A stretch of 64,000 bases of DNA from Squalus acanthias (Eukaryota). Below the pieces are notes generated by a model. It was not told where the DNA came from, ran no database searches, and saw nothing but the letters and a program-made list of their open reading frames with translations. This document shows positions 1,161-63,842 of this stretch, one piece after another. The position numbers were made by a program, and so were the translations under genes. The DNA lies in contig CM059432.1 in the NCBI GenBank assembly GCA_030390025.1, forward strand, positions 4,216,001-4,280,000, written 5' to 3'. How positions within the stretch are numbered: the first letter of the stretch is position 1; the number at the start of each line of letters is the position of its first letter.

Positions 1161-1600
1161 GGGGGTGAAATTCGGTTGCTTTGTGCCTCCCGTTAGCGCC
1201 CCTCGGGGGCGCAAAGCTCCTAGCGCCCAGGCGCGGAGCCGCTGACGCGTCCCGTGAATTTCAGTGGGAGGTTAGTGGCGGCGGTAGCCAGTAGCGCCCT
1301 GCCGCGCTGCGCCGCTGGCGATGACGTCATCGCCGTGCGCAGCGCCCCGCTCGCGCCCCGGCCGCAAACTTGGCTCGCGCCCCCTGACCTATCACCGGAC
1401 GCTATGTTCGACAGGGTCAGGGTGGCGTTTTTGCAGCCGTGGCGGCACTAGTTAAAGGGCAGGTGTCGGGCGGCCATATTTTTGGGGGCCGACCGCCAGC
1501 ACCTGCCCCCTTCCCCTATTTTCTTCGGGGAGTGATCGCTCTGCCCGGCGCTCCTCTTGAAGTTAGCGGCCCAAAGGGGGCACCATCAAATTTCTCCCCC
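1161..1600. mobile_element. Harbinger-type MITE
   Basis: TIRs GGGGGTGAAATT / AATTTCTCCCCC. GC/CpG-rich interior with repeated TAGCGCC motifs and no coding capacity. Confidence 0.8.
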
Positions 1601-1679
1601 ATGATATTTCCTTTTGTGTTGACTGTCCCATTCTCCCTTTTTTAATCTCTTTTTTTGTTTTCCTGTTATATTTATTATA

Positions 1680-2097
1680 TTAAATAAAAACAGAAAATGC
1701 TGGAAATACTCAGCAGGTGGGGCAGCATCTGTAGAGAGAGAAACAGAGAGAGACGTTTCAGGTCGATGACCCTTCGTCAGACCTGGGAAAGGTTAGAGAA
1801 GTAACAGGTTGTCGGCAACTACAGTGGGCAGGGAAAGGGGAGAGGGGAGGAAAGAACAAAAGGGAAGGTCTGTGATAGGGTGGAAGGCGGGAGAGATTAA
1901 ATGACAAAAGGGATGATGGTGCGAGGCAAAAGGAGATGGTAATGGGACAAGTACAGAAACGAAAGATGGGTCTAGAGGAGGTGTCAGTGGGAATGGCAGA
2001 ATCATCAACAGCTGCTGTCCGAAAAATTGGGGGCAGAGGTTCTAATCTGAAATTGTTGAACTCGATGTTGAGTCCGGAAGGCTGTAAATTGCCTATT
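1680..2097 (-). mobile_element. Penelope-like element 3' fragment / terminal repeat (family A)
   Basis: Homologous to 5075-5490 and 41000-41360, which adjoin GIY-YIG coding sequence. Contains the CTGACGA...GAAAC motif. Confidence 0.8.
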
Positions 2098-2214
2098 TAT
2101 TATATTTATCAGTTTACTTCTGTAATATTCCCCCATATTGATCACAGGCCTCTCTGTTAGACCTCGTTTTATCTCTAACCTTTCCATTTATCCATGGAGC
2201 CTCAGCCTTTGAGA

Positions 2215-2920
2215 CAACAACAACTTGTATTTATACAGCGCCTTTAATGTAGTAAAACGTCCAAAGGCGCTTCACAGGAGCGATTATCAAACAAAAATTT
2301 AACACCGAGCCACATAAGGAGATATTAGGGCAGGTGACCAAAAGCTTGGTCAAAGAGGGAGGTTTTAAGGAGCATCTTAAAGAGGAGAGAGAGGCGGAGA
2401 GGCGGAGCGGTTTAGGGAGGGAATTCCAGAGCTTAGGGCCCCGGCAGCTGAAGGTACGGCCGCCAATGGTGGAGCGATGGAAATCGGGGATGCGCAAGAA
2501 GCCAGAATTGGAGGAGTGCGGAGATCTCAGAGGGTTGTAGGGCTGGAGGATGCTAGGGAGATGGCGAGGTCACGGAGGATTTTGAACACAAGGATGAGAA
2601 TTTTAAAATTGAGGCGTTGCCGGACCGGGAGCCAATGTAGAAGAACAGGGGTGATGAGTCAACGGGACTTGGTGCGAGTTTAGGATGCGGGCAGCAGGCT
2701 TTTAGATGAGCTCAAGATTACAGAGAGTGCAAGGTGGGAGACCAGCCAGGAGACCATTGCAATAGTCGAGTCTGGAGATAACAAAAGCACAGATGAGGGT
2801 TTCAGCAGCAGATGGGCTGAGGCGGGGGCAGAGACGGGCGATGTTTCGGAGGTGGAAGTAGGCGGTCTTGGTGATGGAGAAGATGTGGGGTCAGAAGCTC
2901 AGCTCAGGGTCAAATAGGAT
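2215..2920 (-). mobile_element. L2-type LINE 3' end
   Basis: Minus-strand translation IGGRTFSCRGPKLWNSLPKPLR is typical of an L2 ORF2 C-terminus. (TTG)n tail. Confidence 0.8.
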
Positions 2921-3326
2921 AATATGGGCAACAAGTCCACAGAAGAATAATCATAGCGATGAAAAGAAAAAATTGCATGGCTATGCAGAAAGAGCGGTGG
3001 AGTGGGAGGAACAGGATTGCTCTTTGAAAGAGCTGGCACAGACTTGATGGGGCCGAATGGCCTGCATTCTTCGACCCAGCTGAAATATGATAATCTGTCT
3101 TTCCTTTTTACAGATACAGACTGAGCCACTTTCTCTTTTGGGTATCGAATAATCAGATATGGACTCTGAAAGGAGCAGGTTTTATGGGAAGAATGGGCTA
3201 TCTCATTCTGGGCTGCTTTTTTTATTTTAATGAGGCATTAACCCATTAATTTTAAATGAGTTAGTGTCTGTGTAAAAATCGCAGATAAAGGACTATCCAC
3301 CAGTACTAACTTGAGCCATTTCTAAT

Positions 3327-3804
3327 AGAAAGAAAGAAAGACTTGCATTTCTATAGCACATTCACGACCACCGGATGTCTCAAAGCGCTTTACAGCCAAT
3401 GAAGTACTTTTTGAAGTGTAGTCACTGTTGTAATGTAGGAAACACGGCAGCCAATTTGCTCACAGCAAGCTCCCACAAACAGCAATGTGATAATGACCAG
3501 ATAATCTGTTTTTTAGTGATGTTGGTTGAGGATAAATATTGGTCCCAGGACATCGGGGATAACTCCCCTGCTCTTCTTCGAAATAGTGGCCGTGGGATCT
3601 TTTACATCCACCTGAGAGAGCAGACGGGGCCTCGGTTTAACATCTCATCCGAAAGACGGCCCCTCCGACAGTGCAGCACTCCCTCAGCACTGCACTGGGA
3701 GTGTCAGCCCAGCTTTATGTGCTCAAGTCCCTGGAGTGGGACTTTGAACCCACAACCTTCTGACTCGAGAGGCGAGTGTGCTACCCACTGAGCCACAGCT
3801 GACA
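3327..3804 (-). mobile_element. tRNA-derived SINE, DeuSINE/SacSINE1-like, full length
   Basis: Minus strand has a tRNA-like head (TGGCTCAGTGG A-box, GGTTCAAAGTCC B-box-like), a conserved body, an L2-like 3' end and a (TTTC)n tail. More than 10 copies or fragments occur in the window. Family name is from recall. Confidence 0.8.
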
Positions 3805-4659
3805 CAACCTTCGCGACCTCAGGTCATCCCAAAGGCTGTAAAGTGTGAAATAGTGGCCATGGGATCTTTTACGTCCACCTGAGATGGCAGACGGGGCCTC
3901 GGTTTAACATCTTATCTGAAAGACATGACAATGAAAGAAGTGTGCTTCTGTAAAATGGAAATATCGAATCGAAATAGCGTTCTTTGTAGTTAGATCGTGT
4001 TTATTTTAGCCTGAAACCATTTGATAAAATCGCACAGCTAGGTATATTAGTCATAAATAATGGCTTATTCAGCAGAACCAGCAATGCCTTTTTGTGTTCC
4101 ACATTACCGATTCCAATTTGTGTGCACTAACATGCATAAAGTTCTGCAATAATATTTCAGGAAAGGTCATTTATACTTCAAAACATCTCATTCTGAAAAG
4201 GTCAACCAATTAATTCGCAGTCACACCAGAGCTCAGATGTGGTATGCAAGAGATTAAATGTGACTTTTATGGGTCGCCGGGGATTTGAATAAAAGAGGAT
4301 GACACCTGTCCGTATGGTGACATATCCCAAATGAGCTACAAGTTTGAAGCAACAAAGGATTCGCTGAACTTAAGTGTCTTGTTTTATGGCTGTAACTGTA
4401 ATGACTGTCAATGTCTCTCACTGGTGTTCAGTGCCGAGCTTGTAGAGAATGTGACAAGTGCTGGGTTGAAAGTTATATCTGCTTGGACTATATAACACTA
4501 TCGTTAAATGAATCTTTATGATGGTACGTCCCTGGTAACCACTGTCTCTTTCTTCGGGAGTTGTGGTAAGATGTGAAGAGTAAGAATTATTTGAGGAATC
4601 TCACTGAAGAAGAGGGAGTTTCATTGTGCTGTCGTAATAGGTTACTCAATAAATATTTG

Positions 4660-4980
4660 CGTCTTTCAGATGAGACGTTAAATCGAGGCCCCGCCTGCCC
4701 TCTCAGGTGGATGTAAAAGATCCCGCGGCCACTATTTCGAAGAAGAGCAGGGGGGGAGTTCTCCCCGGTGTCCTGGGGCCAATATTTATCCCTCAATCAG
4801 CATCACGAAAACGGATTACCTGGCCATTATCACATTGCTGTTTGCGGGATCTTGCTGTGCGCAATGTGGCTGCTGTGTTTCCTACATTACAACAGTGACT
4901 ACACTTCTAAAAGTACTTCATTAGCTGTAAAGTGCTTTGGGACATCCTGAGGTTGTGAAAGGCGCTATAGAAATATGACT
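4660..4980 (+). mobile_element. DeuSINE-type SINE, 5'-truncated
   Basis: Same body and tail as 3327-3804. Confidence 0.8.
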
Positions 4981-5074
4981 TTTCTATGTTTATAATATAA
5001 CATTCTTCCTTCTGGTCTGTGACAATCAATGCCATCTTGATAATTGTACCATTGAACCGTTTTTTATAGTACGG

Positions 5075-6198
5075 TAATGAAAACAGAAAATGCTGGAAAC
5101 ACTCAGCAGGTCAGGCAGCATCTGCGGAGAGATAAACAGAGTTAAAGTTTCAGGTCGATGACCCTTCGTCAGAACTGGAAAACGTTGGAGATGTAACAGG
5201 TTTTTAAGCAAGTGTAGGGGCAGGGAAAGGGGGGAGGGAGGAAAGAACAAAAGGGAAGGTCTGTGATAGGGTGGAAGGCAGGAAAGATTAAGAGACAAAA
5301 GGGATGATGGTGCGAGGCAAAAGGAGATGGTAATGGGACAAGTTAAGAAACAAAAGATGACTCTAGATGAGGTGTAAACGGGAATGGCAGAATGATCAAC
5401 AGCTGCCGCGTGAAAAAAGAGGGGCAGAGGTTATGGTCTGAAATTGTTGAACTCGATGTCAAGTCCAGAAGGCTGTAAAGTGCCTAATGGAAAGATGTGG
5501 TGCTGCTCCTCGAGCTACGTTGAGCTTCGTTGGAACAGTGTAAGAGGCCGAGGACGGAGAGGTCAGAGTGGGAGTGGAGCGGAGAATTAAAGTGACAGAC
5601 GACCAGAAGCTCGGGATCACACTTACGGACTGAACGAAGGTGTTCTGCAAAGCGGTCACCCAATCTGCGTTTGGTCTCCCCAATGTAGAGGAGACCGCAT
5701 CATCAGCAGCGAATACAGTATACTAAATTGCAAGAAGTACAAGTAAATCGCTGTTTCACCTGGAAGGAGTGTTTGGGGCCCTGGACAGTGGGAAGGGAGG
5801 AGGTAAAAGGGCAGGTGTTGCATCTCCTGCGCTTGCACGGAAGGTGCCGGGCGAAGGGGAAGGGGTGTTGGGGGTGATTGAGGAGTGGACCAGGGTGTCG
5901 CAGAGGGAGCGGTCCCTACGGAATGCTGAAAGGGGGGGTGGAGGGGAAGACATGTTTGGTGGTGGGATCACGTTGGAGGTGGCGGAAATGACGGAGGATG
6001 AATGTGGAGGCTGGTGGGGTGAAAGGTGAGGACAAGGGGAACCCTATCGTGTTTCTGGGAAGGAGGGGAAGGGGTGAGAGCAGGAGTGCGGGAAATAGAA
6101 CGGACATGGTCGAGGGCCGTGTCAACCACGGTAGAGGGGAATCCTCGGTTGAGGAAAAAGGAAGACATATCGGAAGCACTAGTATGAAAGGTGGCATC
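5075..6198 (-). mobile_element. Penelope-like retroelement 3' part (decayed GIY-YIG endonuclease region plus terminal repeat)
   Basis: Minus-strand frames give SSFFLNRGFP...PLVLTFHP...AFRRDRSL...LVYCIRC...LYIGETKRRLGDRFAEHL, with frameshifts. Confidence 0.88.
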
Positions 6199-7222: not shown

Positions 7223-8067
7223 GAGCTGGATTTTCCAAGCCCCGAGGAGGCGGGTATGGAGGCGGGACTGCCGGTAAAGTAGCAGAAAGTGGGGGCGGAT
7301 GGCAAACCCGCCCCCAGCCCGCCTCCGTGCCCTTTTGCCAGGAGGCGGGAAGATGTGCTGCTTCGGGTCCCGTCTCCTGGGGGCGGGAAAGGCATTAAAT
7401 CCTTTTAACTGCCTGTTAACAGGTAGTTAACAGGCAGGATAAAGGATTAGTGACATTTTGCCTTCTCAGGTGAAGGCTTCCCGACCTCGGAGAACCCCGC
7501 CGGGTTGGAGGAGACGTGGAGGAGGTCTGCGGTGGTCGGAGGCACCTGGAAGTAAGATGTAGGGGTGAGTGATGGGTGCAAGTGTGGAGTGGTAAGTATG
7601 TACGGTGAGTGATAAGTGTTAAAAAATGTTCACTTACCTTGTTTTCTGCCTACAGCCTTCATCCACCCTGGATCGGGAGACTCGACATCTTCCTTGTCGA
7701 TTTCACAGACTGGCTGTTGGATCCTCCGAACTAACAGCCATCTGAAATCGACAAAGTTGAAAGGTTTGATGAGTCCTAAACATAAGGTCTCATCAAACTA
7801 CAGAGAATGTCAGTGTTTGACAGCTTCACAGAGCTGTCAAACGCTGACATTTCTTCTTTCAAGAAGTCTTGACAGATGACACGTCAGATGTTGACGTGAT
7901 CTGTCAGTGACTTCCTCCCTAATTGGCCTGCTGAGCCCCAGGGCGGGCTTAACAAGGTCAATCAGGGGAAAATCCCTCTGGTTGGTCAAACGATGATGGA
8001 GGCGGGACATTGACATGACAAGCAGCAGTCCCGCCTCCAACTCATCTCCATTGAGAAAATCCAGCCC
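7223..8067. mobile_element. Non-autonomous TIR element (Harbinger-type MITE)
   Basis: TIRs GAGCTGGATTTTC / GAAAATCCAGCCC. Interrupts contiguous CR1 RT sequence. TSD not clean. Confidence 0.75.
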
Positions 8068-28776: not shown

Positions 28777-30232
28777 AAAGCAAAACACTGCGGGTGCTGG
28801 AAATCTGTAATAAAAACAGAAGATGCTGGAAATGCTCAGCAGGTCAGGCCGCAACTGTGGAGAAAAAAAGAAAAAGAAAGACTTGCATTTCTATAGCGCC
28901 TTTCACGACCACCGGACATCTCAAAGCGCTTCACAGCCAATGAAGTACTTTTTGAAGTGTAGTCACTGTTGTAATGTGGGAAACGCAGCAGCCAATTCGC
29001 ACACAGCAAGCTCCCACAAACAGCAATGTGATAATGACCCAGATAATCTGTTTTTTGGTGATGTTGATTGAGGGATAAATATTGGCCCCAGGACACCGGG
29101 GATAACTCCCCTGCTCTTCTTCGAAATAGTTGCCGTGGGATCTTTTACGTCCACCTGAGAGAGCAGACGGGGCCTCGGTTTAACGTCTCATCCGAAAGAC
29201 GGCACCTCTGACAGTGCAGCGCTCCCTCAGCACTGCACTGGGAAGGTCAGCCTAGATGTTTATGCTCAAGTCTCGGGAGTGGGACTTGAACCCACAACCT
29301 TCTAGACTCAGAAGGCGAGAGTGCTGCCCACTGAGCCACGGCTGACAGTGAGAGCGAAACATAGTTAACAGCTGGAATTTTCTGAGGTGAGAACGGATGG
29401 GTTGGAGGCGTGGGGCGGTGGGGGGGGGGAAGTGAAAGTTGAAAAAATGTGAACCCCGACTCCACGCCGCCCACGTTCAGATGGGATGGGGGGGCGGGCA
29501 GCCAACCCGCTGCCAGGAGGCGGGTTGGCAATTCACATATGATAATGAGGCCTGAAGACTCTGCTTTAACCTGGTTTACAGGTTTGGCTGCGGCGACCGG
29601 GGATCCCGGTGGCTGCAGTGAGGCTGCCTCAGCCTCGGGGAGCAAAGCTTGTGGGCCGGGAGGAGCAGCAGAGTTTCCTCCCGGCCCACCAAGCTCCCCC
29701 ACCGTCAGCCTGGTATCCCTGAGGTCGGTGCTCCGATCTCCCCCCCCACCCAACCCCCGCCCCTCCAGGGATCAGACCCCTCCTGGGCCTGGAACACCAC
29801 CCCCGCCACCCCCCCCCCCACCCCACCTCCCCGGATCGCAACCCTCCCCTCCTCCCCCCCGCCAACCCCGGGAACAGGGATCAGATCCCCCGCCCGGAAT
29901 GACGACTCCACTCGTAGCAGCCCGCCCCCCCACCCCACCAACCAACCCCCCAGGCTTGGACCCGCACACCCAACATCCTGGGCCCAGCACTAACCAGGTC
30001 CTGTGGCCTCCTTCTCCGCGGTCCAAACACGACTGGACGCCAGCTGGTCAATTAGGCTGACGTCCAGGCGGGGAACCCGGCCCTGAGTTAACTCCACAGC
30101 ATGCCTTCCGGGTTTCCCACCATCTCCCGGGTCCTCCAGCACCGTGCAGGTGGGACATGGGAAAATCCAGCACGACGTTTCAGGTCGGAGGCCTTACGTC
30201 AGAACTGGAAAAGGTTAGAGCTGTAACAGGTT
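28777..30232 (-). mobile_element. Penelope family A terminal repeat split by a DeuSINE (about 28868-29347) and a MITE (29370-30173)
   Basis: Pieces 28777-28865, 29348-29369 and 30174-30232 reassemble the sequence seen at 5075-5200. Confidence 0.78.
29370..30173. mobile_element. Harbinger-type MITE
   Basis: Imperfect TIRs AGCTGGAATTTTC / GAAAATCCAGCAC, 3-bp flanks AAC / GAC, C-run-rich interior. Confidence 0.72.
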
Positions 30233-31464: not shown

Positions 31465-31644
31465 CGCATATGTAAAGAAGGACCCTGCTGGTTCCGGGTG
31501 CGTCTCCTCGCTGCCTGCTCAGGAGAGCAGGTTAAAAACGCAGACGTCGCGATCATGGCGGCTTTCGCACAGGTAAGAGCCGGGGCGACTTTAACTGCCC
31601 GCCCGCCAGGTTTCTGCTGAGCGAGTAGGGTTAAAATTCACCCC
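31465..31644. mobile_element. TIR-element end fragment abutting a Penelope family A repeat
   Basis: Ends in AAAATTCACCCC, followed directly by AACTCTGTTTCTCTCT. Confidence 0.55.
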
Positions 31645-31920
31645 AACTCTGTTTCTCTCTTGACAGATGCTGCGTGACCAGCAGCTTTTATACGTTTTCA
31701 TATGTGATTCACGTGAGATTTGGGAACAAAACATGGATATCTTTGATGTATATTAATGACCTGGACGTGGGTATAGGGTCAGGAGGAGGTGTGTTGGTTT
31801 GAGTCAGTCTAGCACGCGCCTACACACCACGGGCAAATCTCGGGGGCCCGTCAGAACAAGGGAGGGAAGGGAGAAGTGTGATGGACTTTCAACACCCTTC
31901 TGAATGGCGTCACGTGGGAC

Positions 31921-50768: not shown

Positions 50769-52182
50769 TTATTGGAACCGCAGTCTGATGAGGCGGTCAC
50801 GGATCAGGACAAAGCAGCCCACTTGATTGGCACCTCATCCACCACCTTAAACATTCACTCCCTCCACCACTGGCGTACCGTGGTTGCACTGTGGGAGTAC
50901 CATCACCACACGGACTGCAGCGGTTCAAGAAGGCAGCTCACCACCACCTTCTCAAGGGCAACTAGGGATGGGCAATAAATGCCGGCCTTGCCGGCGACGC
51001 CCACATCCCAGGAACGAATTTTTAAAAAGGACCATCATTCCAGAAGGCCGATTGATTTGCTGCCTCCTCCCTCGCTCCTGTTCCTCCTCCTCCTCCTCCT
51101 CCTCCTCCTCCTCGTCTTCCTCCTTTTCCTCCTCCACCTCCTCCTCTCCCTCTTCCTCCTCCTGAGGTAGTCCCACAATCCCTGGTGGCAAGGGCTGGGC
51201 CCTCATGATGGCCAAGTTGTGGAGCATGCAGCAGACCATCACGAAATGGGACCCCCGCTCAGCCGAGTACTGGAGGGCTCCTCCCGAGCGGTCAAGGCAG
51301 CGGAACCATTGCTTGAGCCCCCCCGATGGTCTGCTCGATGATGTTCCTGGTGGCGGCATTGCTCTCGTTTTATGATTGCTGGGCAGGAGTGTTAGGGTTG
51401 CGGAGAGGAGTCATGAGCCAGGTGGAGAGCGGATAACCCTTGTCTTCGACCAGCCAGCCGCTTGATGTGGTGGCCGGAAGAGTGCTGGCACACCACATCA
51501 AGCGGCTGGTGCAGGATGAAGGCATCGTGGCTGCTGCCAGGATAGCGGGCATTCACATTGAGGATTCGCTGTCTGTAGTCGCACACCAACTGCACATTAA
51601 GTGAGTGATAGCCTTTGCTGCTACGGAGACCTCAGGATTGTTATGCAGTGCCCGCAAAACCACATGGGTGCAGTCAATGGCGCCCTGCACCATGGGGAAT
51701 CACGCTATCCTGGCAAAGCCACATGCACGCTCGTCCTGCTTCTCTCTGGTGATGGGGAAGAAAATGTAGTCCCTTCTCCTACTGTAGAGAGCCTCTGTGA
51801 CCTCCCGGATGCAGTGACGGACAGCGAACTGCGAGATGTTCGCTATATCTCCTGTTGCAGACTGGAAGATCCGCTGGCGAAGAAATTGAGGGCGACGGTG
51901 ACCTTGACTGCCACTGAGGGAGCCGTGGTCGGCCTGATCTGAGGCTGGAGGTCTGGTTGCAGGAGGTGACTGAGTTCTGTGACCACCTCCTTGCTGAAGC
52001 GGAGAGCCTTCTAATACGCTGCTCCTCGCTCAATTAGAGGTAGGAGAAGTGCTCTCAGAATACCCACGGAGGGTAAAGGCTCCTGTTGAGAGCTCTCATG
52101 GCCCTTCTCCTCCCTCTGGCCACATGTTCTAATCTTTCTCGCTGCCTCCGCCGTAGATTCTGGAGGCCAGTACAGCCCCCAT
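50769..52182 (-). pseudogene. Harbinger (HARBI1-like) DDE transposase pseudogene
   Basis: Motifs [69 protein letters not shown] and an acidic tail. Has stops and frameshifts. LINE-B insert at about 50804-51028. Confidence 0.92.
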
Positions 52183-52699
52183 TAATGTAACCACGTCTAG
52201 CACTTCGAAATGTTGTGGGAATAAATGTAACTAATTGTTAGTAGCCACAACACCCCTGATACTCGACAACTTTAAGTGACTGAATTAAACTGTTGCAAAT
52301 GTCAAACTGACAAGGAAGCAGTGAAACAGCACTAACTTGACAGCTGCGACTCATTACTCATGATCCCTTTAAGCAGCACCCCTGTAGAGCCTCCTCTCCC
52401 TGTCGCTTTCGGGGCGAGGTGCTGAGGCAGGGGGCGAAAATTAATTTTGCAGATCGGGCTCCCAGTGAGCGTTGCACGCTCACTGACGTCACGATCTGCC
52501 TGGCGCTGAGGTCCCCGGCGGTAACTCATAGCGGTGGCGCTGTGGGGGGGCACTAACTGGAGGGACTAACCAACGGAATTTTTCCCCCATTAGGTTTTTA
52601 ACGACAATCTGGAAGTTTCTTGGCTTTTTAATTCCAGATTTATTATTTAATTAACTGAATTTAAATTCATTTCATTAGACCTCATTAGATCATGAAATG

Positions 52700-53055
52700 T
52701 TAGTACAAAGCCACACTCAGCCTCATCCTGCTGTGTCTCTCATCACATCCCCATCACTCTGCCACCCCTACCCTACTCCTGCACATCCTTACTCACACCA
52801 ACTTACCTTGCACCTCCACCCATCTCTCTCTATCTACATTATCCCATCCCCATCTCACTAGCCACCCCTCACACTCACCCTCATCCTAGTGCAATCATAC
52901 CAACTAACAACACACAAGGGTAGCCACTTGGGTGTTTTAAGCAATTTTTATGTAAAGTTTCTGTTCATGTGCTGTCAAACATTGAAATCTTTATTTTCAA
53001 CACTTTCTGGTCTTGGACAGATTTGTGTGCACCTTTGGAATTGGCTCAGTGAATA
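52700..53055 (+). mobile_element. Internal fragment of the 61536-63605 element family
   Basis: Alignable by eye to 61920-62195 (ACCAACTTACCTTG...CCCCATCTCACTAGCCACCCCTCACA...ACAACACACAAGGGTAG). Confidence 0.75.
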
Positions 53056-54207: not shown

Positions 54208-56970
54208 GAACATAAGAACATAAGAAATAGGAGCAAGAGTAGGACATTTGGCCCTTCGAGCCTGCTCCGCCATTTAATAAGATCATGGCTGATCTTCTAC
54301 CTCATCTCCACTTACCTGAACTATCTAGATATCCCTTGATTCCCTTAATATTCAAAAATCTATCGATCTCTGTCTTGAATATACTCAACGACTGAGCCTC
54401 CACAACCCTCTGGGGTAGAGAATTCCAAAGATACACCACCCTGAGTGAAGACATTTCTCCTCATCTCAGTCCTAAATGGCCGACCCCTTATTCTGAGACT
54501 GTGACCCCTGGTTCTAGACTCCCCAGCCAGGGGAAACATCCTCCCTGCATCTACCCTGTCAAGCCCTGTAAGAATTTTGAATGTTTCAATGAGATCACCT
54601 CTCATTCTTCTAAACTCTAGAGAATATAGGCCTAGTCTACTCAATCTCTCCTCATAGGACAATCCCCCCATCCCAGGAACCAGTCTGGTGAACCTTTGTT
54701 GCACTCCCTCTATGGCAAGTATATCCTTCCTTAGGTAAAGAGACCAAAACTGTACACAATACTCCAGGTGTGGTCTCACCAGGGCTCCATATAATTGCAG
54801 TAAGACGTCTTTACTCTTAAACTCAAATCCTCTTGTAATAAAGGCCAACATACCATTTGCTTTCCTAATTGCTTGCTGTACCTGCATGTTAACTTTCAGT
54901 GATTCGTGTACAAGGACAACCAGGTCCCTCTGAACACCAACATTTCCCAATCTCTCACCATTTAAAAAATACTCTGCTTTTCTATTTTTCCAACCAAAGT
55001 GGATAACTTCACATTTCTCCACATTATATTCCATTTGCCATGTTCTTGCCCACTCACTCAGCCTATCTATATCCCCTTGAAGCCTCCTTGCATCCTCCTC
55101 ACAACTTACATTCCCACCCAGCTTTATATCATCAGCAAACTTGGATATATTACATTTGGTCCCCTCATCCAAATCATTGATGTAGATTGTAAATAGCTGA
55201 GGCACAAGCACTGATCCTTGCGGTACCCCACTAGTTACAGCCTGCCAACCCGAAAACGACCTGTTTATTCCTACTCTCTGTTTTCTGTCCAATAACCAAT
55301 CCTCAATCCATGCTAGTATATTACCCCCAATCCCATGAGCCCCAATTTTATTTACTAACCTCTTGTGTGGCACCTTATTGAATGCCTTCTTAAAATCCAA
55401 ATACAGCACATCCACTGGTTCCCCCTTATCTATTCTGTTAGTTACAACCTCAAAAACCTCTAACAGATTCATCAAACATGATTTCCCTTTCATAAATCCG
55501 TCTTGACTCTGCCCAATCCTGTTATTATTTTCTAAGTGCCCTGTTACCACGTCCTTAATAATGGATTCTAGCATTTTCCCTACTACTGATCACAGAATCA
55601 CAGAATCACAGAATCCCCAAATGATGTCAGGCTAACTGGTCTGTAGTTCCTCGTTTTCACTCTCCCTCCTTCCTTAAATAGTGGGGTTACATTTGCTACC
55701 TTCCAATCTGTGGGAACCGTTCTAGAATGTTTAGAATTTTGGAAAATGACAACCAATGAATTCACTATCTCTATAGCCACCTCTTTCAAAACCCTAGGAT
55801 GTAGGCCATCAGGTCCAAAGGATTTATCGGCTTTCAGTCCCATTAATTTCTCCAGTGCTACTTTTTTACTAACACTAATTTCTTTCAGTTCCTCATTCTC
55901 GCTGGACCCTTGGTTCTCCACTATTTCCAGTAAGTTTTTTGCATCTTCTTCCATGAAGACAGACATAACGGGCTCGATTTTGCCCGGCCCGAGGAGGCGG
56001 GAATGGAGGCGTGTGGGGTGCTAAAATTGCAAAAAATGGTGGGCGGGCCCGACCCCACCTCCATCCCGCCTCCGAGCAATTTTCCCAAATGCGTGGTTTG
56101 TGATCCCGTCTCCGTCCCGCCTCCAAGAGGCGGGATAGGCCCTTAAGGCCCTTAACAACCACTTAATTGCCTCTATAATCCCATTTTGAGAGGCCGTTCT
56201 GATTTTAACACTTTTCCGATGTGATGCACGCCTCCTCTGAAACACGACGGTGAAACCTGACGGTAGCACACTTGGATTGCTGACTATCAGCTGCAGGTCC
56301 ACCATTAAGAAGGAGATTTGATCAATCATCATTCTGGGGGAACTTTTAGCAGTCATAACCATTGTTGTGGAACTTTGGAGCCTGGAGTAGTGGTGGTGGC
56401 GGTGGTGGTGGTGGTGGTGGTGAAAAAATCTGGGAGCAGACTTAGGTCTCCTGTTGCTCATTTTGCCTCCAGGTCCCTCTCACAGCAAAGGCCAAAAGCT
56501 TCCCAGTCTTTGCAGACCTTAAATGCAGCAGCAATGATGACATCATCAGAGGCGACTTTCAGACTGAAAAAACTAATTGGGTCATGGGTTCCCACATGCT
56601 GGAACTCAATTGCCCAATTAGGGGAAAATCGAATAATTCTCCCACATCCAATTGGAGTCGGGTGGCTAACACGAAAAGCGGATAACATGACCCCAGCCCG
56701 CCCCATGACAAAATCGAGCCCTATGTATTTGTTTAATTTCTCTGCCATTTCCTTATTCCCCATTATAAATTCTCCTGTCTCAGCCTGTAAGGGACCCACA
56801 TTTACTTTCACTAATCTTTTCCTTTTTACAGACCTATAGAAGCTTTTACAGTCTGTTTTTATGTCTCTCGCTAGTTTACTCTCATATTCTATTTTCCCTT
56901 TCTTTATCAGTTTCTTGGTCCTCCTTTGCTGAATTCGAAAATCCTCCCAATCCTCAGGCTTACTTCTTTT
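54208..56970 (-). mobile_element. CR1 LINE ORF2 fragment containing a MITE
   Basis: 404-aa RT ORF 54360-55574, with upstream parts 55598-55966 and 56722-56970. Confidence 0.93.
55970..56721. mobile_element. MITE with perfect 13-bp TIRs
   Basis: GGGCTCGATTTTG / CAAAATCGAGCCC. Interrupts CR1 between the NKY and SVF codons. Contains (GTG)n at about 56386-56422. Confidence 0.85.
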
Positions 56971-58365: not shown

Positions 58366-58907
58366 ATTCTGAGGACCAAGGTGAGAGAGTATAAAGGGCA
58401 CCCATGCTGATGGAATAGATGGCAGGTGAAGTAGAGATGACAGCAGCGATCTGTCAATGCCGAGAGAGGTAATGAGGTGAGGCTGGATGGAGATTTGTGG
58501 AAAGACTTGCAGCATGCTGAATCTGCTGTGGAAATGCAGTGAGGAAGAGCTTGTGGCTGAGGGAAGCGACCATCTGTCAGGTGGAAGCTTTTACTGTACA
58601 TTCGAAGCTGTCACGTAATCAGCTGGAGCAATGGCCACTGAACTCCCGCCTCAGGTTGACAGATTTGGTCACTGAACAGCGTGGTTCCCGTGGCCATGAA
58701 GTTAAAGTTAATAAGTAAGGTTACAAAGCCTCTCAAGGGTTTGGTAAGTACATTATAATGAGATTAATTGGGTCGCCCGCCGCTGCCTGTCGGGTCTGCT
58801 CAGCGCTGACAGACCCGACTCTGGGAAAGGCGCGTTGCGGCGGGTTGACAGTGGGTTCCCGACCCGCTGTCAAAAAGACCCACTTTCCCACCCAGAAAAT
58901 TCCGGCC
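58366..58907. mobile_element. Right end of a Harbinger-type element
   Basis: Ends CAGAAAATTCCGGCC followed by GTTAACTCTG. Interior is related to 63040-63605. Confidence 0.72.
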
Positions 58908-59017
58908 GTTAACTCTGTTTCTCTCTCCACAGATGCTGCCAGAGCTGCTGAGTACTTCCAGCATTTTCTATTTTTATTTCAGATATCCAGCATCCGCGGT
59001 ATTTTGTCTTTGTGCTT

Positions 59018-61350: not shown

Positions 61351-61535
61351 ACTAGAATCCAGCAATGGAAAAAATGGTGACGGGCGCTGTTTATTATTTA
61401 ATATCTCAGCTGCCTTCTTAATATTATGAAAAAATGGTCACACCTTGGCTTCCTCCTCCTGCATTATTCCAACTCCAATGTATCAAACTAGAATGTTTTA
61501 CGAGTTCTGACGAGAGTTCATCGACCAGAAACGTT

Positions 61536-63605
61536 GGCCGCCAATTTAATTGAGGAGGCGGGATGGGGGGCGGGTCAGCTGGTTTCCGAGTTCCGGGTTC
61601 CGGTCCTGCCCCCAGCTGCCTCCGCTCTGCAGACGTGATTTTCCCTTGATTGGCCTTGTTAAGCCCCGCCCAGCGGGCTTCTCGGCCAATTAACAGGAAG
61701 CGGGTCTGACGACGCCATTTGATGACACATCATCAGCCGGTTTCCTTAAAGGGACCACGTCCACATGGAGTTTGATAGTTGTTCTGTCAGTGTTTGACTG
61801 CACAAAGGTGAACGCTTGCACCCAGGCTCTCCAATGATCCCTCCATATGCTTATGGAGGGAGTCACAGCATGCAGGGAGGTTCTCTTCCCTTCCAAGGGT
61901 GGAAGAGACCTCCCCAGGACACCAACTTACCTTGAACCTCCACCCAACCCTCTCTATCTACTTTATCACTTCCCCATCTCACTAGCCACCCCTCACAATC
62001 ACCCTCATCCTACTGCAAGCATATCAACTAACAACACACAAGGGTAGGCACTTGAGAGGTTTAGCCAATGTCCATGTGAAGTTTCTGGTAATGTGTTGTC
62101 ATACAGTGAAATCTCTTTTTCCAAAAGTGCCCCTTATTGGACAGATCTGAGCGCACCTTGAGAAGTGTCTTACTGAGTTCCAGTGATTGTTCAGTCATAA
62201 GAACATAAGAACATAAGAAATAGGAGCAGGAGTAGACCAATCGGCCCCTCGAGCCTGCTCCGCCATTCAATGAGATCATGGCTGATCTGATCCAACCTCA
62301 ACTCTAAAGAACACAAGAAGTAGGAGCAGGACCAGGCCACTCGGCCCCTGGGCCCGCTCCGCCACCCACAGGGCCTTGACCGATCCGAACTCACTCATGT
62401 CCAATTTCCAGCCCGCTCCCTGCAACCCCTAATTCCCTTTACTTCTAGGAAACGGTCTATTTCTGTTTTAAATTTATTTAATGAAGTAGCTTCCACAGCT
62501 TCCTGGGGTAGCAAATTCCACAGACCCACTACCCTCTGAGTGAAAAACTTTCTCCTCATCTCAGCTTTGAAAGATCAGCCCCTTATTCTAAGATTATGTC
62601 CCCTAGTTCTAGTTTCACCCATCATTGGGAACATCCTCACCGCGTCCACCCGATCAAGCCCCTTCACAATCTTATATGTTTCAATCAGATCGCCTCTCAT
62701 TCTTCTGAACTCCAATGAGTAGAGTCCCAATCTACTCAACCTCCCCGCCCCCCCCCCCCCCCACCCCCGTTATAGTGGTGAGTGTGTATGGAATAGCTTG
62801 GACATTAAAGGGATGCTTCACCGTGTTGGTGTGGGATGGTGTCAACCTGGCGCATCATGTGGCAGCCAGGGTTTACAGCATCAACTGAAGTAAATCTGGC
62901 CATGGTGATGCCATTGCTGGCCTCCCGGGCTGCAATTTTATCAGGGACTGATGCCCTGTGTCCAGTGCAGCATCAGGTGATGGCGGAGAAGGTTGGTGAT
63001 GAGGTTGGCGATGTTGGTGTTGGGGCTGATCGTGGAAGGATTCGGAGGACCAAGGTCTGATTGTTTCATTGGCTCCGATGTTGCTGGAATAGATGGCAGC
63101 TGCAGGTGAGATGAAAGAAGTGATCTGTCACTGGTGAGAGAGGTTTTCCCAATGAGGTGGCACTGGACATACAGATGGATCTAAAAACTTGTAAGCTAAA
63201 GAAATCTCTATATGTATTAAAAATGCAGTAACCAACATTTTCTGTGCTCTGAAACTCACCATCTCCAACATGGCATCCTTGACACCACTTCTGCAGCTGT
63301 CAGCTTTTCACAAACATCAGAGCAGACTCAAAACACGCCAGCTTGAGCTGGCGTGTTCCCCGAACAGCAGGTAACCCGTGGGGGAGAAGGTAAAATTAGA
63401 AGTAAGCCTTAACAAGCCATTTAAGTAGCTGAATTGTCTCCCCTGCGCTTGGTGTCAGGTCAGATCTGTGCTGACAGACCCGACACCCGGGAGACTCGCG
63501 TGGAGGCGGGTTGACCTTGGGTTTCCTACCCGCTGTCAATCTTTGCTATTTTGACAGCGGACCCGCCTCCAAACCTGCCCCCTCAGTGCTATTAAATTTG
63601 CGGCC
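61536..63605. mobile_element. Non-autonomous Harbinger-type element with 3-bp TSD
   Basis: TIRs GGCCGCCAATTTAAT / ATTAAATTTGCGGCC and perfect TSD GTT. Myb/SANT-like remnant at about 61815-61910 (HMLMEGVTACREVLFP). CR1 insert at about 62196-62742. Confidence 0.85.
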
Positions 63606-63842
63606 GTTAACTCTGTTGCTCTCTCCACAGATGCTGCCTGACCTGCTGAGTGTTTCCAGCATTTTCTGTTTCTATAATGTTTTACATATCCTTGACTTTA
63701 TGACACTTGAAAACATTAATTAAAAAAAAACATATCTTATTATTACACCTTGCCATGGCACTTAGCAGGGTCTAGGGGGACCGTTTGTTGTAGTGATATT
63801 GCTCTCCAATAACAGTTTTGTTAGAATGTAAATTGCCTGCAG

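Follow-up and report, generated by a model that had tools for sequence, protein, structure and literature searches.

Base-exact Harbinger insertions at a predicted Penelope hammerhead in Squalus acanthias are probably explained by an ordinary preference for a degenerate palindrome

Features of the locus

A stretch of 64,000 nucleotides from the Squalus acanthias genome (contig CM059432.1, positions 4,216,001 to 4,280,000; hereafter the window) was analysed for Harbinger elements inserted in a Penelope repeat, and the junctions found were searched in the 3.71-Gb genome. The following features, in positions of the window, are used throughout.

5081..5700, minus strand: Penelope copy without an insert, in which the pseudo-LTR comes after a GIY-YIG remnant; the empty site is mutated here
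7223..8067, unstranded: in-window control, Harbinger MITE of the same lineage in a LINE reverse-transcriptase hotspot
29370..30173, unstranded: E3, Harbinger MITE whose family has two unequal ends, one of type GGCCGGAATTTT and one of type GGGCTGGATTTT
30174..30232, minus strand: E3 host pseudo-LTR, left half, with a degenerate hammerhead core
31629..31644, unstranded: E4, lone TIR end of type GGGGTGAATTTTAACC, abutting the host right half without a triplet
31645..31682, plus strand: E4 host pseudo-LTR, right half, starting AACTCTG
55970..56250, unstranded: in-window control, Harbinger end in another recurrent LINE site
58366..58907, unstranded: E2, second Harbinger MITE, right part, end type GGCCGGAATTTTCT
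58908..59000, plus strand: host pseudo-LTR behind E2, GTT and right half
61492..61535, plus strand: E1 host pseudo-LTR, left half, with helix I 5' strand, CUGACGA box, degenerate helix II and GAAAC
61533..61535, plus strand: E1 left target duplication GTT, predicted hammerhead N-U-H triplet
61536..63605, unstranded: E1, non-autonomous Harbinger element (MITE) with 15-bp TIRs, 14/15 complementary
about 62196-62746: LINE fragment nested in E1
63606..63608, plus strand: E1 right target duplication GTT
63606..63671, plus strand: E1 host pseudo-LTR, right half, from the helix I 3' strand on; 95% identical to the copy at 5145-5081

The three insertions described in the initial annotation were recovered at one and the same base of the repeat: both GTT triplets and both host halves are present around E1, GTT and the host right half stand directly behind the end at 58907, and the minus-strand flanks of E3 read GTT and GTC. 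Pieces of E1 are 80-95% identical to two MITEs at unrelated genomic sites with the duplications TAT and TAA (L104, L105), and a Myb remnant was detected within it at 61838-61918 (tblastn 0.001). E2 shares 71% identity with the right end of E1 across 260 bp; no left end of E2 was found in the window, and 52670-53052 may represent its left interior. Relatives of E3 (n=29, at 66-83%) were located in the hammerhead site once and elsewhere in 28 cases.

The control MITE at 7223-8067 is inserted seven codons past the FADDTKLGG motif of the LINE, and its flanking triplets are unlike (AAA left, TCA right). Unlike triplets were also seen in 7/24 paired elements of the largest family, exceeding the expectation from 2% flank divergence. 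The LINE flank of the 55970 end recurs in two further loci (L095, L476). On the minus strand at 51000-52600 lies a decayed Harbinger transposase gene, about 35-47% identical to the transposase of L101, with a different end type near 52590. The output of an inverted-repeat scan of the window was dominated by LINE copies.

Identity of the inserting elements

The window elements are deletion derivatives, and full-length relatives share their end types. One such relative, which itself sits in the hammerhead site (L101), carries DDE_Tnp_4 (1e-28) and Myb_DNA-bind_5 (3e-9) on opposite strands; DDE_Tnp_4 was observed in further full-length relatives (L308, 2e-33; L306, 2e-32) and Myb_DNA-bind_5 in L102 (5e-10). 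Duplications are of 3 bp, with identical triplets in 5/6 and 17/24 paired elements. Short TIRs with a 3-bp duplication, a DDE_Tnp_4-type transposase and a Myb/SANT ORF, as in the PHIS/Harbinger superfamily, were all present, and the assignment of the inserts to Harbinger holds. The TWA duplication of the narrow PIF/Harbinger group is not the rule (TTA and TAA together 20/114 triplets, AAA, ATA, TAT and TTT being likewise common), and the CWG duplication of the NuwaI group was found in 0/114 triplets, with no CAG or CTG. Harbinger elements directly beside or within other Harbinger elements were noted at five loci (L322, L366, L091, L475, L478).

The Penelope host repeat and its predicted hammerhead

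The exact empty site, an 18-mer, occurs 51,894 times genome-wide, and empty sites hold one triplet only. ORFs of 735 aa (L300) and 956 aa (L299) end about 360 bp before the site. The former matches RVT_1 (5e-6, residues 275-406) and GIY-YIG (6e-4, residues 655-690), under the Pfam curated cut-offs, and the latter GIY-YIG (9e-4, under the curated cut-off); the RVT_1 match was confined to L300. From this position behind GIY-YIG/RVT_1 ORFs the host repeat was identified as a Penelope pseudo-LTR, and L300 has the Penelope-like layout of reverse transcriptase and C-terminal GIY-YIG in one ORF followed by the pseudo-LTR. The frame of L299 starts within pseudo-LTR sequence downstream of the hammerhead. 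Head-to-head (fold-back) Penelope ends are common among host copies (L005, L007, L009, L038, L121, L133, L134), and a stub of this kind therefore offers two target sites.

Evaluation of the motif in 33 host copies, picked without regard to the site, showed conserved CUGANGA and GAAA boxes; 96% of 297 cells in helix I (4 bp) and helix II (5 bp) are paired; 12/500 shuffles were paired as highly, and both sides changed in just two cells, so that there is little covariation. With the palindromic 15.2-16.2 pair and the U-H step, these are the features of a minimal hammerhead, except that the 10.1-11.1 pair, G-C in the canonical motif, is G-U in 18 copies, A-U in 12, G-C in 2 and other in 1. We take GTT to be positions 16.2-16.1-17 of the minimal motif; position 17 is U in the host. 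An Rfam scan of the window gave four weak matches, no hammerhead among them. Box conservation and helix pairing across the 33 copies bear out the earlier proposal that the duplicated GTT is the predicted cleavage triplet, and an insertion there comes between the predicted core and the 3' strand of helix I. In PMC4209133, a single minimal hammerhead assayed as a monomer gave no cleavage.

Recurrence at one base

Junctions of the TIR families were collected genome-wide, and five Harbinger end types were found at the same GTT, in both orientations. The junction of CTGAAACGTT with GGCCGC occurred 95 times compared to once for the control, and ends of type GGSSYSRAWTTT gave 818 left junctions at the site with 0 for the control. 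For the largest family, 586 left junctions were counted where 0.56 would be expected under uniform insertion, an enrichment of about 1,000-fold. Three hits in a single window are a tail event: if the genome holds an assumed 1,500-6,000 insertions of this kind, triple hits are expected in 0.2-10 of 58,000 windows, and they are likelier where host copies are about three-fold denser, as they are here.

Several neighbouring structures were recorded during these searches. A further end type, GGCCCTGAAATT, was found at the +6 position of the Penelope repeat (L036, G000:C1:455801). Two loci (L501 and L502; G000:C2:78652407 and C2:112448102) combine the left flank of a tandem site upstream in the repeat with the right flank of the hammerhead site and lack the intervening host sequence, a structure left by recombination between two insertions or by an adjacent deletion. 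Identical GGGCTGGATTTT contexts at nine loci within G000:C1:0.2-4.4 Mb (L400, L402-L405, L416, L417, L425, L426), three of them 4,247 bp apart, are probably a multi-kb tandem or dispersed repeat and not transposon ends.

The lone end E4 does abut AACTCTG, as originally described, but the 3-bp shift read into this junction is likely a lost duplication. The E4 end type elsewhere uses the GTT base in 11/11 pattern matches. Ends directly abutting AACTCTG number 12 genome-wide; ten were fetched, of which five had a partner end, two with an ordinary GTT-site left flank and three with a trimmed flank. An AAC duplication was seen in 0/5 of these partnered ends, and the reading of the 31644 end as inserted 3 bp further on was rejected on this basis. 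E4, whose own left flank is gone, likely also inserted at the GTT site and had its duplication removed by a junction deletion.

Target motif and the LINE hotspot

Outside the hotspots, the flanks of the lineage show a palindromic bias with the consensus CAGACAC-WWW-GTGTCTG, worth 6.8 bits from 98 flanks and about 7 bits from 184. The first matrix kept 98/114 ends after removal of 5 site-linked and 11 LINE-hotspot ends, and the largest-family matrix kept 56/95 after removal of 10 duplicates, 12 LINE-hotspot and 17 look-alike ends. The target is a degenerate palindrome, RACAC-WWW-GTGTY, present at unrelated sites. The initial annotation had proposed a longer palindromic target, AACGTTAAC; the palindrome stands, while AACGTTAAC itself was rejected, as the flank consensus differs from it and ends lie at unrelated sites.

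A matrix built without Penelope flanks was scored on ten host copies collected by BLAST and ranked the GTT base first over 260 bp (weight 177 vs 32 at +6), with a score about 180-290 times background; the junctions at the two positions number 95 vs 9. In 25/33 paired sites each flank has a purine at +1 and a T at +4; the hammerhead site has all four.

A stronger hotspot lies in a LINE reverse-transcriptase frame. Its site has 3,363 exact empty copies and holds 733 left junctions of the largest family, where the matrix predicts 696 (357-1,231); with another end type, the site was seen in 40/49 strings among the matches listed. The LINE carrying the hotspot, presumably a CR1, is homologous to a window ORF with RVT_1 (6e-27). 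Hits per 1,000 exact empty sites come to at most 7.6 for GTT copies, 36 for ATT copies and 218 for the LINE site, about 29 times the GTT rate per copy, with half-sites as numerators and 18-mers as denominators, so that a more diverged host appears somewhat higher than its true rate.

GTT and ATT copies of the host

GTT is a disfavoured duplication in this lineage (1/114 outward triplets), and host copies in which the triplet reads ATT provide an internal comparison. There are 5,387 of these, and they take 193 of the 586 largest-family junctions, leaving GTT at most 393. Per copy, ATT sites are hit at least 4.7 times as often as GTT sites, where the matrix predicts 5.4 (3.4-10); the ATT rate is inflated by the longer exposure of these older copies. 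Paired duplications (n=31) were GTT/GTT in 17 cases, ATT/ATT in 10 and mixed in 4. Triplet contexts in the first 100 junctions among the matches listed were, by hand count, CGTT 51, CATT 34, TGTT 12 and TATT 3, so that TGTT, the other product of CpG decay, is much rarer at junctions than CATT (12 vs 34).

The concordant ATT/ATT pairs would record CpG decay of the host before insertion, a decay that breaks the predicted 15.2-16.2 pair. As decayed ATT copies are preferred and 10/31 pairs are ATT/ATT, the intact cleavage triplet is not what is sought. The repeat provides a natural gauge of the motif, in which a single-base change of the duplicated triplet from GTT to ATT lifts use about five-fold.

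Misfits of the additive matrix

For GTT copies the pooled matrix predicts 136 (48-277) hits where at most 393 were observed, and for ATT copies 75 (32-146) where at most 193 were, a 2-3-fold shortfall that stems in part from setting half-site numerators against 18-mer denominators. A second misfit concerns a tandem site of the Penelope repeat, 126-136 bp upstream of the hammerhead site, which had been set beforehand as a test of the additive matrix and went against it. The site scores nearly equally and has only 15 hits, about 7 times fewer than predicted and about 15-fold fewer per copy with a rough denominator (9 vs 23 half-sites in 0.93 Mb). The largest-family matrix alone even ranks it over GTT (224 vs 126), and the GTT base came top in 89, 163 and 149 of 200 bootstraps. 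Correction for later mutation removed neither the GTT/ATT shortfall nor the upstream over-prediction. The rule of R at +1 and T at +4 fits better than the additive matrix, two weak sites failing it; the upstream tandem site is without T at +4 on one side. In view of these misfits the additive matrix is accurate only to within about a factor of ten.

There may be a modest additional bias towards the hammerhead site. It might stem from non-additive recognition (intact half-site cores, overlapping palindromes or DNA shape), from shared compartments or from weaker selection in dead repeats, and it would be consistent with the shortfall at GTT and ATT copies alike and with the over-prediction of an upstream site that misses one T at +4. 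The shortfall is equal for both triplets, however, and so is not tied to the triplet, and the matrix comes from 184 flanks with wide intervals and rough denominators. We consider such a bias doubtful though deserving of attention; it would supplement the general preference and not replace it.

Share of insertions at the hammerhead site

Samples drawn from the transposon side, at the start of contigs C1 and C2, had 5/114, 0/30, 4/30 and 0/85 ends in the hammerhead site (9/259 in total), where one sample, that with 4/30, was read by eye and the 85 are distinct ends of the largest family. Whole-genome counts for four end types were 43/2,219, 11/431, 54/2,304 and 11/270 (sum 119/5,224), in which 43 and 54 are hand counts among the matches listed (55 and 76 strings); these counts rest on exact matches and are lower bounds, and flanks were verified at 30, 13 and 11 loci. 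One end type with 4/30 in the sample gave 11/270 genome-wide. The fifth and largest type has the 586 elements at the site among approximately 36,270. The site thus takes about 2-4% of the insertions of the lineage. Within the window itself, two more elements of the lineage (7223-8067 and 55970) are in LINE sites.

The initial annotation had regarded the high-copy retroelement as a safe haven. Dedicated targeting of this kind, in which the lineage would have become specialised on AACGTTAAC of the Penelope hammerhead, much as Dada transposons recognise small RNA genes, and would knock out the ribozyme, is in keeping with the roughly 1,000-fold enrichment over uniform insertion, with the use of one base by five end types and with the 2-3-fold excess over the matrix. 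It is largely refuted by the transposon-first samples, since about 96-98% of ends lie elsewhere and the LINE site takes 12/85 largest-family ends. The flank consensus also differs from AACGTTAAC, the per-copy rate is far higher at the LINE site, ATT copies are preferred, and 28/29 relatives of E3 are at other places. We regard dedicated targeting as very improbable.

Independence of the insertions

Inserts diverge immediately behind the TIR and belong to many families. The nearest neighbour was an end at another site for 37/61 site-linked ends. Label changes in element trees (excluding L246 and L011) numbered 21 vs 22.0 when shuffled and 17 vs 20.3 (P 0.044, mild clustering in one of four trees), and in subsets matched for end type 20 vs 19.6 and 10 vs 10.9. 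From the scattered labels and the occurrence in both orientations the insertions are independent, as the initial annotation had suggested.

Amplification of a few Penelope-Harbinger composites by retrotransposition or segmental duplication is visible at L010 and L011, which are near-identical in insert and flank and represent one duplicated locus, and some of 30 largest-family inserts have best matches of 96-99%, but as a source of the bulk it was rejected on the neighbour counts and tree labels of the insert-side trees and is hardly credible given the many insert families in both orientations, the division of 30 inserts of one end type into 7 clusters and the three window elements that are 71% alike or unrelated.

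Interpretation

With a probability of roughly 85%, an ordinary preference for the degenerate palindrome RACAC-WWW-GTGTY, combined with the high copy number of the Penelope repeat, explains the base-exact hits. A large Harbinger lineage with a DDE transposase, a Myb/SANT protein and 3-bp duplications inserts at this motif, and its transposase complex, by analogy with Harbinger3_DR, may directly read a half-site on each side of a staggered cut of 3 bp. In the more than 50,000 copies of the Penelope site, acceptable half-sites would be supplied by coincidence, one by GAAAC of the hammerhead core and the other by AACTC of helix I. An insertion would then leave the core and the helix I strand on opposite sides of the element; most of the copies hit were presumably dead, truncated stubs beforehand, in which case splitting of the hammerhead has little effect on the retroelement.

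The locus illustrates cleanly that targeting can be mimicked when a transposon with a loose target motif meets a high-copy repeat. A literature search gave no report of Harbinger insertion into Penelope hammerheads in the portions of the sources available. According to PMC9179366, no Harbinger was found in elephant shark and a check of other cartilaginous fish was called for; in the present shark genome, by contrast, Harbinger elements are abundant.

A wider proposal would be that GAAAC before the cleavage triplet, obligatory in minimal hammerheads, supplies one half-site in general, that Penelope pseudo-LTRs are a cross-species, base-exact Harbinger sink, and that the 2-3-fold extra preference is real here. 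We think this quite unlikely. If true, the extra preference could begin a Dada-like specialisation and active Penelope copies could be removed; the importance of the site would be greater only if the residual excess were real and conserved.

Comparison with known systems

The inserting elements resemble the PIF/Harbinger and NuwaI groups of the PHIS superfamily (PMC4482050) in having two ORFs, for a DDE transposase and a Myb/SANT protein, and in their short TIRs beginning with G or GGG, a length of about 4.2-4.8 kb and a 3-bp duplication. They differ in their duplicated triplets, which as a rule are neither TWA, as in PIF/Harbinger, nor CWG, as in NuwaI (PMC4482050).

The host motif resembles the minimal hammerheads of Penelope-like elements (PMC4209133), with a type I motif in the pseudo-LTR, a helix I of 4 bp, an extra base after position 9, a palindromic 15.2-16.2 pair and no helix III. 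The G-C pair at 10.1-11.1, highly conserved in those hammerheads (PMC4209133), is present in 2/33 copies here, and position 17 is U here.

Regarding the target, zebrafish Harbinger3_DR prefers AAACACCWGGTCTTT (PMC3016246), likewise a palindrome of about 15 bp around a 3-bp duplication, and its outward half-sites GTGTTT and GTCTTT (PMC3016246) resemble the GTGTCT found here. The central triplet of Harbinger3_DR is CWG (PMC3016246), whereas that of the present lineage is relaxed and A/T-rich, in a loose motif of about 7 bits. Dada (PMC3706591) is likewise a DNA transposon that sits base-exactly in a multicopy sequence encoding RNA, but its families are target-specific with 6-7-bp duplications (PMC3706591). 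For a Dada-type element most copies would be found at one site of one multicopy target, whereas here a few percent of insertions are at the site (9/259, 119/5,224 and 586/~36,270 in the three sets of counts). By these analogies, target choice in the shark lineage appears to work like that of Harbinger3_DR and unlike that of Dada.
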